Sequence record: PQ666540
DNA from: Shigella phage sb2
Strand: one strand, 5' to 3'
DNA: 64,000 nt
The notes under the pieces are model-generated. The model was not told where the DNA came from. It searched no databases and was given only the letters and a program-made list of their open reading frames with translations. This document shows, in pieces, positions 24,115-26,671 of the stretch (the stretch's first letter is position 1; every line of letters starts with the position of its first letter). Made by a program: the position numbers and the translations under genes.

Positions 24115-25128
24115 TCATTTATAATAACTTCGGTGGTTTTCAAGATAAACCCTCTCAAGGAAGTCATCCCAAAAACCCATGTCTACTTTTTGCTGCATAC
24201 CGTTCTTAGAAGCTTCAATGGATGCTGCTTCTACTTGATCGACCACATCTTCCAAAAACTCTTGAACAGTTTTAAATGGATGTTTACCCAACTTCACGTC
24301 GAGAATAAATGGAGCGTCTTGAAGTGGATAGACTAAGTCACCAGTTTTGTAAATTTCCAATAGTTGGAGTCCACCGCGGCAAGCATGACTTAGAGCTTTC
24401 CAGTCAATGCCCTCATTCGCTTCAGCTTTACGAGCGCGTTCGCCGTATTCAGCATCTAATTTGTTCAGTGACTGCTTAAGCTCAATAAGAGAAAGCGTTG
24501 TCTGATATTTACGACCCAACACGGTGTAGAACGTTTGTGGGCCTGTTTTCTCATGATTATGGAATACCCATTCACAGAATTCGTTCTCTGGAAGACGATG
24601 CTTAATATCTTCAACTTTAGTTCGACGCTGCTTAATGGAACCGCCTTCTTGATAATCAACCCACTGATCGGGGATTTGATTAACTACTTTCAATACATCA
24701 CGCAATGCGGCCAAACGAGAACCCTTGACGCCGTATTTAGAAGCTTGCTTGCGAACATATCCTAAATAGGATTTCATGTTAGTCGTATAAAAACGAGAAC
24801 GATTGTCTTGAATAAACTTCCATACATCAGGCAAATCAGATTTAACTACCAGTTCAGGTGGAGTGTGAAGCATATCCAATGCTACAGTTTCACCATCTGC
24901 TGCTAATTTAAAGAAATATTTAAGACTGTATAGTTCATGGTCAATATCATCTTTAGTGTTTTTAGATGATGTATTGTTAGTGTTTTTGCTCATATGCTCT
25001 TTAACATTTCCGATAAGAATATCGCGAGCAGGAGGAACAAAGATTTCTTTAAAATCTACATCAGATTCTGGAGTAGAAGTTCCATAAAGATGACTACCAA
25101 AATAGCTTTTCATTACTGTTTTCATCAT
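24115..25128 (-). CDS. predicted Pol-beta-superfamily nucleotidyltransferase
   Basis: 337 aa; N-terminal GS...DxD signature (FGSHLYGTSTPESDVDF) and downstream acidic residue (VALDMLH). Confidence 0.6.
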   Translation of the reverse strand: MMKTVMKSYFGSHLYGTSTPESDVDFKEIFVPPARDILIGNVKEHMSKNTNNTSSKNTKDDIDHELYSLKYFFKLAADGETVALDMLHTPPELVVKSDLPDVWKFIQDNRSRFYTTNMKSYLGYVRKQASKYGVKGSRLAALRDVLKVVNQIPDQWVDYQEGGSIKQRRTKVEDIKHRLPENEFCEWVFHNHEKTGPQTFYTVLGRKYQTTLSLIELKQSLNKLDAEYGERARKAEANEGIDWKALSHACRGGLQLLEIYKTGDLVYPLQDAPFILDVKLGKHPFKTVQEFLEDVVDQVEAASIEASKNGMQQKVDMGFWDDFLERVYLENHRSYYK

Positions 25129-25586
25129 TCAGCCTTATATTCAATAACAGGACATACTTTAGCTTTACGAGCTTTTAAAAATTCGACGATAATAGATTTC
25201 TTGGGTTGAATAGGAGGTAAACCTTTATACGCCCTATCAATATTTTCTACATGTAAAGCATAATCCTTTTTCCATTTATAATCTTTATATTTTTCATGCA
25301 GTTGTGCAGGAATAACAAATGAACCAATAATAAGTAAAACAAGCAAAATGGCAAGTATAAATGCTGATGGAATAAGAGTCCATAGACTGCTAAAAATAAT
25401 CCAACGCTGTAAACTTTCTGCGCAGATAATAGTTAGACCTGCGAGTATAGTACATCCGAAAAAAGAAACGAAAAATGTAGGGATAACAATAGACCAAAAG
25501 TATGCACATAATGTCTTAGGTCGTTTCCATTCGTCGTTAAACATTTTGAATAATTTATAATGCCAAGAGTTTTCATTAATAATCAT
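25125..25586 (-). CDS. membrane protein
   Basis: 153 aa with three hydrophobic segments. Confidence 0.5.
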   Translation of the reverse strand: MIINENSWHYKLFKMFNDEWKRPKTLCAYFWSIVIPTFFVSFFGCTILAGLTIICAESLQRWIIFSSLWTLIPSAFILAILLVLLIIGSFVIPAQLHEKYKDYKWKKDYALHVENIDRAYKGLPPIQPKKSIIVEFLKARKAKVCPVIEYKAE

Positions 25587-25588
25587 AA

Positions 25589-26110
25589 TTATCCTTTCAT
25601 TGAAGGTGTAACAGTTGTTAAATACTTAATCATAGCTTCAGCTTCTGATTTTGATAATGAAATTTCTCCATTGTTTTGACGAATAGAAATAAAATCCGGA
25701 TGACGGTCACCACCAGCTTTTAAAATACACATATAAGTATCAGTTTCATCTTCAATATCTGAAATGATTGAAGCAGTTCCGCATGAATGCGGTTTTTGAT
25801 AAATCAATGCAGCTTTTCTTCCGCCGTTTGACTGTTCATAAACTTTTAACACATCAAACAAATCGCTTCTTTTATCAATAGCTAAGATGTTGTTTTCATC
25901 TTCAATGTTAAATCCTTCGGATACTTCATAAAGTGTCACCCATAAATCACCTATATCAATAACAGCGTTCACTTTTCCATGACTTTCAAGAGCATGACAA
26001 ATTTTCTTGATTTCATCATAACTCATTTTAATAATATCATCTCCTTGAATAAAAAAGATGTCATTTTTAAATTCAACACGAATTAAACCACTTCCACTTG
26101 AAATAAACAT
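25589..26110 (-). CDS. hypothetical protein (paralog of next ORF)
   Basis: 173 aa; C-terminus LSKSEAEAMIKYLTTVTPSMKG parallels FTKDEAIALKTYLDSVIPTMISK in 26117..26671. Confidence 0.5.
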   Translation of the reverse strand: MFISSGSGLIRVEFKNDIFFIQGDDIIKMSYDEIKKICHALESHGKVNAVIDIGDLWVTLYEVSEGFNIEDENNILAIDKRSDLFDVLKVYEQSNGGRKAALIYQKPHSCGTASIISDIEDETDTYMCILKAGGDRHPDFISIRQNNGEISLSKSEAEAMIKYLTTVTPSMKG

Positions 26111-26116
26111 ATTTCC

Positions 26117-26671
26117 TCACTTTGAAATCATAGTTGGAATGACAGAATCAAGATAAGTCTTTAGCGCAATAGCTTCGTCTTTTGTAAATGTGACAATATG
26201 TGAACGAAAATCATCAATTTGACGAATAGTTAAGACGTCTCCATCTTCATAACATTTTGATACGTTTAAAACAGTTTCATCATTCTGATTGCAAGCGTTA
26301 GTAATAATAGCATTGCAATTTTTAAACCATTTTAAACTATGTTTTCTTTCATTAGAATAATAAAAATATTTAATCTTATCTATAAAACTATCCCAATGGA
26401 TAACTGATAAACACATTGACTCACTTTTAATATTAAATCCTGGGCATGAAGAATAAAAATGAATTTTGTGCTCATCATTGATGCTTACTATTTTATCAGT
26501 ATAAGGATATTCAATTTGGGTTAAATGAATGATTTCGCTAGGAGTAAAATATAGCATATCGTCTTCTTGCGTCAAACGATACATGTTATTTACTTTTTCT
26601 ATAGCCAATTCACCAAAAAGTGGACTAACTTCTAATACTAATCGTTTCATATTAATCCTTTTTACTAACAT
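26117..26671 (-). CDS. hypothetical protein (paralog of previous ORF)
   Basis: 184 aa, shared C-terminal motif. Confidence 0.5.
   Translation of the reverse strand: MLVKRINMKRLVLEVSPLFGELAIEKVNNMYRLTQEDDMLYFTPSEIIHLTQIEYPYTDKIVSINDEHKIHFYSSCPGFNIKSESMCLSVIHWDSFIDKIKYFYYSNERKHSLKWFKNCNAIITNACNQNDETVLNVSKCYEDGDVLTIRQIDDFRSHIVTFTKDEAIALKTYLDSVIPTMISK

Follow-up and report, generated by a model that had tools for sequence, protein, structure and literature searches.

A tandem pair of diverged MobD.1/y05I-family genes at the endonuclease-free mobD site of a T4-like Shigella phage, with a predicted three-repeat fold

The locus examined here lies in a 64,000-nucleotide stretch of DNA from Shigella phage sb2 (record PQ666540; hereafter the window), which is a genome segment of a T4-like (Tequatrovirus-type) phage. 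Two adjacent open reading frames (ORFs), 25589-26110 and 26117-26671, raise the question of how they are related to each other, what their products could do, and whether they belong together with the 153-aa membrane-protein gene beside them. An earlier note, written from the letters alone, had described ORFs with related ends, attributed them to a local duplication and suggested that they might form a membrane-associated module with that gene, whose product it credited with three hydrophobic segments. Comparisons at the level of sequence and predicted structure identify the two products as deeply diverged members of the MobD.1/y05I family. The explanation that we prefer overall, tentatively, is a tandem diverged y05I pair encoding PC4/PUR-like dimeric early binding proteins.

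Both ORFs are found on the minus strand where the earlier note had placed them, with the ends that it quoted, and their similarity spans the whole proteins rather than just the last 20 residues. In BLASTP, residues 3-171 of the 173-aa protein aligned with residues 15-181 of the 184-aa protein (176 columns, of which 26% are identical and 49% positive; E=3e-9), and in an all-ORF BLAST of the window the two were each other's sole matches below E=0.4. Both carry the same two Pfam domains. PF24449 (T4_y05I_N; gathering cut-off 24.9 bits) scored 115.9 bits on residues 2-95 of the 173-aa protein and 134.2 bits on residues 11-107 of the 184-aa protein, while PF24448 (T4_y05I_C; cut-off 27) scored 81.9 bits on residues 102-171 and 75 bits on residues 112-181, respectively. 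Full-length matches to phrog_1502 (E=4e-66 for the 173-aa and 5e-81 for the 184-aa protein) were in agreement with these assignments. The Pfam label of the two families is "putative transcription factor". Scans of NCBIfam and PADLOC returned no match for either protein, and searches of PDB chains, run with the two proteins as well as with profiles of the family and of the C-domain, returned chance-level matches only (HOP1, CsoS1D and STIM1, E ~1). In a literature search, the sole mention of mobD.1 was in a homing-endonuclease review, where it serves to mark the site of mobD insertion, and nothing relevant came up for y05I.

The two genes are not equivalent with respect to T4. The product of the upstream gene is 85% identical to T4 MobD.1 and 99% identical to the "MobD.1-like" protein of phage ACG-C40, and the gene itself has 91% DNA identity to T4 mobD.1, with which it is colinear; judged by these identities, it is the T4 mobD.1 ortholog. 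T4 MobD.1 is among the top scorers of the family, with 146.7 and 73.7 bits on the PF24449 and PF24448 models. The 173-aa protein shows 23-31% identity to every MobD.1-type protein compared, and no more than 23-27% to MobD.1 orthologs, which places its gene as a deeply diverged paralog that is not a mobD.1 ortholog but a second lineage of the MobD.1/y05I family. The mobD.1 start is probably ATG 26650 (177 aa) and not ATG 26671 (184 aa), because the former is preceded by AAGGA, lies one base after the upstream stop and is the annotated start in ACG-C40, whereas ATG 26671 falls inside the upstream gene.

AlphaFold models suggest a repeated architecture for the family. The MobD.1 model has a mean predicted local distance difference test score (pLDDT) of 76.8, with about 90 in the N-domain, and DSSP divides it into three units of four strands and one helix: strands 3-9, 13-20, 23-28 and 31-35 with helix 37-45 in repeat 1; strands 53-56, 62-65, 72-75 and 80-83 with helix 86-101 in repeat 2; and strands 113-117, 125-133, 137-145 and 150-156 with helix 157-170 in repeat 3. 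The N-domain of the paralog was modelled at pLDDT 90.8 in a ββββα-ββββα layout. The proteins are thus predicted to contain three ββββα repeats, of which the N-domain holds the first two and the C-domain the third, with the topology of PC4-like/Whirly-like folds. A Q-[D/E]-D...E motif is common to repeats 1 and 3 (hhalign, 66% probability). Small DUF7189 genes encoding 54-72 aa adjoin y05I genes or lie close upstream of them in three loci of distant relatives (L007, 4773-4988; L011, 3772-3990; L009, 989-1189 and 1543-1707); an hhalign comparison of DUF7189 with the y05I C-domain gave a probability of 87%, and the DUF7189 proteins may count as additional single-repeat relatives. Beside these DUF7189 genes stands a DksA/TraR zinc-finger gene.

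PC4-like folds are divided into those that carry the ββββα-linker-ββββα arrangement in one chain (type I) and those that assemble it from two chains (type II) (PMC7549692). Repeats I-II of PURA are a PC4-like type I domain, type II units work as dimers, and the combination of the two types was, in this 2020 review, so far reported only for Pur-alpha (PMC7549692). Foldseek searches of the PDB with the full-length model matched Pur-alpha repeat III with probability 1.0 and a template modelling (TM) score of 0.71-0.78 of the target; superposition on repeat III of 5fgo gave root-mean-square deviations of 1.6-4.7 over 58-68 columns at E about 0.03-0.05, which is short of usual significance. Repeats I-II of Pur-alpha were matched with probability 0.97-0.98. 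Superposition on repeats I-II of 8chv_D gave a query-normalised TM of 0.47 at E=0.043, again short of usual significance, although both superpositions rank at the top. When the N-domain was searched alone, the best four distinct PDB entries were human PURA I-II, SsgB, 2it9 and an SsgA-like protein (TM 0.43-0.47). The SsgB trimer has been described as "whirly"-shaped, and weak matches in BFVD include a phage "Whirly transcription factor" and MOSUB.

Both genes are widespread in relatives; the earlier note would have counted a lack of conservation in any relative as refuting its reading. Megablast with window positions 25000-27200 as the query matched 508 phage records; in 359 of these, colinear alignments at 90-97% identity covered 80% or more of the query. 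The 173-aa type occurs at 80% identity or more in 433 phage records, and about 430 genomes keep it intact at 90-99% conservation, while the MobD.1 type occurs at 80% identity or more in 413 records and in more distant form in 313 others, including Mosigvirus and JS98-like phages; the y05I family as a whole was found in 728 phage records. The family is nevertheless very narrow in composition. A hidden Markov model (HMM) profile of the family, scanned with HMMER against 1.84 billion representative proteins, gave 29 matches, which are two-domain proteins, fragments or stand-alone C-domains (70-87 aa), bar one spurious repeat protein. The latter (P0065, 1572 aa, with 9 reported y05I_C-like stretches) was rejected as a relative: it is a beta-helix protein with a 47-aa Cys-containing tandem repeat, and in our own HMM run its 14 stretches each scored below 9 bits, so that the reported score was a summed artefact. 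Truncated y05I copies are present in T2, fPS-90 and bas43. Against ACG-C40, the ratios of nonsynonymous to synonymous substitution rates (dN/dS) of the three ORFs were 0.04, 0.11 (173-aa gene) and 0.17, on small counts, and by this measure mobD.1, the 173-aa gene and the membrane gene are under purifying selection. The pair is already catalogued, being deposited as hypothetical proteins in hundreds of T4-like genomes and covered by existing Pfam families.

Comparison with T4 disclosed what occupies this slot in the type phage. Colinearity of T4 and the window runs to the nrdC.11 start (25129) and resumes at 26092, 19 nt inside the 173-aa gene; between these points the T4 mobD cassette takes the place of window 25130-26091 (962 bp, containing the 173-aa and membrane genes). 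What T4 retains of the lost 173-aa gene is its ribosome binding site and six initial codons (MFISSG). T4 has no tudor gene, with no match to window 26649-26967. The nrdC.11/mobD.1 junction is listed as the mobD insertion site (PMC2988022), and the window is the endonuclease-free state of that site. In T4 (L001, 11206-11277, minus strand) the retained ribosome binding site and six codons open a 23-codon ORF whose TGA overlaps the mobD ATG (CCAATGA), and the promoter-less mobD endonuclease may be translated by coupling to this remnant.

Further rearrangements were found in other relatives. Shigella phage SP21535 is colinear with window 26943-26272 and then with 25750-24098, and the two genes are joined at the 10-nt microhomology GATGAAACTG, which occurs in register in both (Table 1). 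The resulting fusion (L006, 2480-3019) is a 179-aa chimera of a MobD.1 N-part and a paralog C-part, and the same chimera (P0011) was found on 6 metagenomic contigs. Mosaicism extends to the membrane gene of SP21535, whose ends match the window without a difference and whose core is divergent (57% protein identity). In other lineages the slot holds one type only: the MobD.1 type in Mosigvirus APCEc01, L007 and L011, and the 173-aa type as the sole y05I copy, at 58% identity, in the metagenomic contig SRR8048117_1869 (L010). This contig shows a sharp mosaic boundary at 1282-4805: its nrdC.10 and nrdC.11 are 98% and 77% identical to those of the window, and its membrane, y05I and tudor proteins 30%, 58% and 50%. 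The cassette has been swapped there within an otherwise near-identical backbone.

What these arrangements say about origin is less specific than the duplication first proposed. The paralogy itself holds over the full length, and a local event is only one option, because the proteins share 26% identity, a single 21-nt in-register stretch is the only DNA-level trace between the genes, and each type stands alone in the same slot elsewhere. The pair could stem from an ancient duplication with differential loss, or from two divergent alleles juxtaposed by recombination. A version of the latter in which each allele arrived with its own membrane gene was not supported by membrane-protein identities, the window protein being 50-57% identical to partners of MobD.1-type genes and 30% identical to the partner of the 173-aa type in L010. 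The genes are accessory, since mobD replaces them in T4, viable genome-reduced T4 mutants lack nrdC.11-mobD.3 (PMC9825161), and natural truncations and an in-register fusion exist; the nrdC.11-mobD.3 block is dispensable in laboratory T4. We conclude that this is an ordinary accessory-gene pair in a hyperplastic region of T4-like genomes.

The pair does lie immediately upstream of the 153-aa ORF, and this ORF belongs to a family of its own, confined to phages. Residues 1-152 match phrog_944 ("membrane protein", E=1.2e-50), and tblastn found the family in 925 phage records across Straboviridae genera, in phages of Escherichia, Klebsiella, Enterobacter, Citrobacter, Aeromonas and other T4-like phages. 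In place of the three hydrophobic segments previously counted, hydropathy gave two long stretches, at about residues 26-56 and 62-95, with Kyte-Doolittle 19-residue means of up to 2.2 and 3.0, respectively; the second is interrupted by Pro. The protein has an isoelectric point (pI) of 9.35 and Lys/Arg-rich termini, with 13 Lys and Arg against 7 Asp and Glu in the tail. Because of these two long stretches and the Lys/Arg-rich ends on both sides, two transmembrane helices with both termini inside are most likely, rather than three. The family alignment shows conserved end motifs, MIINxNSWHxK, LCxYFW and KxCPxhxh (h, hydrophobic), around a hydrophobic core that diverges fast. His-9, Cys-27 and Cys-145 are kept in the predicted cytoplasmic end motifs (NSWH, LCxYFW and KxCP) while the transmembrane core is variable, a pattern suggestive of two ends that fold as one unit, perhaps with a metal ion at its centre.

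No family in Pfam, NCBIfam or PADLOC was above its cut-off for the 153-aa ORF, PADLOC giving only a weak hydrophobic-segment match (E=0.002, 15.9 bits). Likewise, no Pfam family was common to this ORF and T4 membrane proteins of known role, with Imm, Sp, RI and holin T not compared individually. The order of y05I gene, membrane gene and nucleotidyltransferase gene is kept in distant relatives, and parts of it also occur separately. Genes of 175-193 aa that lie between the membrane and nucleotidyltransferase genes in Merlin, KPV15 and L009 were tried as hidden y05I genes and rejected, with no HMM or Pfam match and chance-level BLAST scores.

In the explanation that we prefer, repeats 1 and 2 of each y05I protein would form a closed PC4-like/Whirly-like domain, while the lone C-terminal repeat, unable to close on itself, would find its partner in another C-terminal repeat, in the manner of PUR repeat III of Pur-alpha. 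The paralogs would then homodimerise, and probably heterodimerise, through their best-conserved part, which includes the C-terminal helix at the related ends flagged in the earlier note. Dimerisation through this repeat is suggested by the analogy to Pur-alpha, by its conservation, by its exchangeability in the chimera and by its existence in stand-alone genes; since the repeat is both exchangeable and conserved, the paralogs may heterodimerise. As their most likely function, put forward tentatively, the dimers would be made early and would bind single-stranded nucleic acid, or else a host protein involved in its handling, and in some hosts would influence RNA repair or the expression of host or phage genes. 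In this view the membrane protein would be a co-expressed but separable neighbour. With regard to the ligand, the Pfam label and the modelled fold suggest single-stranded nucleic acid, which we put forward as a hypothesis only.

Several observations weigh against this explanation. The C-domain of the MobD.1 model, which would provide the dimer interface, has a pLDDT of only 47-77. No Foldseek match was significant, the best having E values of 3e-3 to 4e-2 and query-normalised TM scores of at most 0.47. There was no sequence match to the PUR, Whirly or PC4 families in Pfam or to any PDB chain; for PurA (PF04845) in particular, none appeared at E<=0.1 in Pfam, and no PUR chain at E<=10 in PDB sequence and profile searches. 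The whole family is acidic in both domains (pI 4.2-5.5), which is atypical for nucleic-acid binders. The promoter and terminators that would make the genes an early unit (Table 1) are consensus matches only.

The acidity of the family fits protein binding of the SsgB kind at least as well, and it could mean that the y05I proteins are protein-binding adaptors, in which a Whirly-like scaffold, as in SsgA/SsgB, binds and redirects or inhibits a protein of the host, for example one of defence or takeover, and no nucleic acid is bound. By TM (0.47), SsgB and the SsgA-like protein are no worse matches to the N-domain than PURA is; the genes are apparently early-expressed, judged by the promoter match, and dispensable; and the y05I and membrane genes of L010 (30-58% identity) diverge much faster than the flanking nrdC.10 and nrdC.11 (77-98%), as would be expected in an arms race. 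No partner is known, however, no PADLOC or other defence-related family was matched, and the SsgB similarity is no stronger than the PUR similarity, so that we regard adaptors as a serviceable but rather unlikely reading. The opposite emphasis would make y05I the phage version of the complete layout of Pur-alpha, a eukaryotic protein; heterodimers of the paralogs would bind single-stranded RNA or DNA early and possibly feed the co-transcribed RlaP-type nucleotidyltransferase NrdC.11 within an RNA-repair or counter-defence pathway; we judge this extended form improbable. That the 173-aa copy is instead a redundant, functionless duplicate heading for loss might be read from its displacement by a homing endonuclease in T4, its truncation in isolates such as bas43 (96 aa) and its fusion with mobD.1 in SP21535. 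Its conservation in about 430 genomes largely refutes this, and its dN/dS of 0.11, its strong Shine-Dalgarno sequence, its confidently predicted fold (pLDDT 90.8) and its presence as the sole copy in L010 point the same way, leaving decay highly improbable.

The suggested membrane module deserves weighing on the same terms. In its strong form, the acidic y05I proteins would dock on the Lys/Arg-rich tail of the membrane protein and share a role with it, for example in superinfection exclusion or envelope remodelling. The gene just ahead of the membrane gene is a y05I gene in the window, ACG-C40, APCEc01, SP21535, L007, L009, L010 and L011, a stand-alone y05I C-domain gene occupies that position in Merlin, the spacing between the genes is only 2-12 nt, and the acidic y05I proteins (pI 4.8-5.5) complement the basic-tailed membrane protein (pI 9.35) in charge. 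The partners nevertheless come apart: the membrane gene is missing from T4, which has MobD.1, and stands in KPV15 without a detectable y05I gene beside it, and the family counts are unequal (925 records for the membrane protein, 728 for y05I). Moreover, gene order is broadly conserved among T4-like phages, so that adjacency is weak evidence, and the tightest coupling of the membrane gene, an ATGA overlap, is with nrdC.11 and not with the y05I genes. The module in this sense is not borne out by these comparisons, and we give it a low probability; the tandem pair of PC4/PUR-like binding proteins, with the membrane gene as a separable neighbour, is the explanation that we carry forward.

The features of the region are collected in Table 1. 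The genes are closely packed: mobD.1 begins one base past the tudor-gene stop, a gap of 6 nt separates mobD.1 from its paralog, and one of 2 nt lies between the latter and the membrane gene. The nrdC.11 ATG and the membrane-gene stop overlap by 4 nt (ATGA), as they also do in L007 and L011. GAGGA stands ahead of the 173-aa gene as its Shine-Dalgarno sequence, in the role that AAGGA has for mobD.1, and the GTG start of the tudor gene was taken from the ACG-C40 annotation and the sequence. The candidate promoter has 10/12 consensus matches plus an extended -10 element, and its copy in ACG-C40 is identical. Together with the hairpin just past nrdC.11 it would frame a candidate unit of ~3 kb comprising mobD.2, a DUF7438 remnant, the tudor gene, mobD.1, the paralog, the membrane gene and nrdC.11; the hairpin after rI.-1 would close the preceding unit. 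The nrdC.11 gene has 94% DNA identity to its T4 counterpart. Its product matches RlaP, described as "RNA repair pathway DNA polymerase beta family", and this match hints at an RNA-repair role for nrdC.11, a conserved gene of T4.

Table 1. Features of the mobD.1 region of the window; all lie on the minus strand.
Feature	Position	Strand	Remarks
nrdC.10	23032-24012	-	context gene
candidate terminator	24094..24113	-	GC-rich UUCG-loop hairpin and T run, just past nrdC.11
nrdC.11, nucleotidyltransferase gene	24115..25128	-	context gene; Pfam RlaP PF10127, E=3.5e-11; phrog_388
membrane-protein gene, 153 aa	25125..25586	-	phrog_944
MobD.1 paralog gene, 173 aa	25589..26110	-	PF24449 and PF24448
GATGAAACTG, second copy	25741..25750	-	paralog codons D121-E122-T123; in register
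mobD.1 ortholog (UniProt y05I), 177 aa	26117..26650	-	earlier ORF reading to ATG 26671, 184 aa
GATGAAACTG, microhomology, 10 nt	26272..26281	-	MobD.1 codons D124-E125-T126; fusion-deletion site
phage tudor-domain gene, 88 aa	26652..26918	-	PF24144, E=5e-39; directly upstream of mobD.1
candidate promoter, sigma-70/T4-early-like	27112..27140	-	TTTACA-17-TATAGT with TG; consensus scan
candidate terminator	27969-27986	-	similar hairpin and T run, after rI.-1
rI.-1, rI, rI.1, then tk	tk, 28935-29516	-	beyond several small DUF7438 genes

Upstream of the tudor gene, the DUF7438 gene at 26921-26979 (minus strand) carries a 126-bp in-frame deletion between short direct repeats (ATTGAAAC...), which leaves a 19-codon ORF, MTSEQAFKLRELIETLIGE; the counterpart in ACG-C40 (L002, 5921-6106) encodes 61 aa and bears the erroneous annotation "helicase loader". 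The long and the short variant are both in circulation, the record matches spanning either 2201 or 2327 bases. Three further minus-strand genes, 27144-27317, 27307-27501 and 27504-27743, are at the positions of mobD.2a, mobD.3 and mobD.4, and all match DUF7438 at E about 1e-16. These three genes are a tandem paralog array, and they are probably the first paralog pair to which the earlier note referred when it counted the present one as the second. In rI.-1 (27991-28377, minus strand), codon 10 (28348-28350) is a stop where T4 has Gly, and the other 118 codons are identical to T4; the gene, a reported modulator of lysis inhibition, is here either a nonsense allele or is translated from a restart at Met-23 (106-aa ORF, 27991-28311). 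An Rfam scan of the window matched only a tRNA cluster, with nothing in the mobD.1 region. The cluster holds ten tRNAs (41545-42373, minus strand) and is the expected T4-type tRNA region; the tRNA at 41706-41785 is barely above the Rfam threshold.

The pair in itself adds little to what is recorded, as it is deposited, Pfam-covered and dispensable in T4, and the added value lies solely in the fold prediction and in the dynamics of the slot. The latter provides a clean natural example of how a hyperplastic slot in T4-like phages evolves, through deep alleles, a tandem pair, a fusion at a 10-nt microhomology and replacement by an endonuclease that left six codons behind, and it puts on record how the mobD insertion site looks without the endonuclease. 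The three-repeat PC4/PUR-like prediction gives the y05I family a concrete hypothesis, namely that its members dimerise by way of the C-terminal repeat and bind either single-stranded nucleic acid or a host protein.

Set against known systems, the locus differs from T4 in carrying two MobD.1-family genes in tandem where T4 has a single copy, and in lacking the free-standing HNH homing endonuclease gene mobD, which occupies the same genomic slot in T4. The 153-aa ORF is a full-length member of phrog_944, together with RB32ORF096c, APCEc01_203 and Merlin gp104, and has the same place upstream of the nucleotidyltransferase gene. For the y05I proteins, SsgB (6slc) and the SsgA-like protein 3cm1 match the N-domain as well as PURA (TM 0.47) and are likewise small, acidic and, for their part, protein-binding; in contrast, they serve actinomycete cell division, form trimers, have no extra C-terminal repeat and show no sequence similarity to the phage proteins. 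Pur-alpha (3k44, 5fgp, 5fgo and 8chv) differs from the phage proteins, known here from models alone, in that the latter are acidic, have no sequence similarity to it and reach an N-domain TM of at most 0.47. It nevertheless shares with the phage models the three-repeat layout, in which repeats I-II of Pur-alpha form an intramolecular domain and repeat III an intermolecular dimer.

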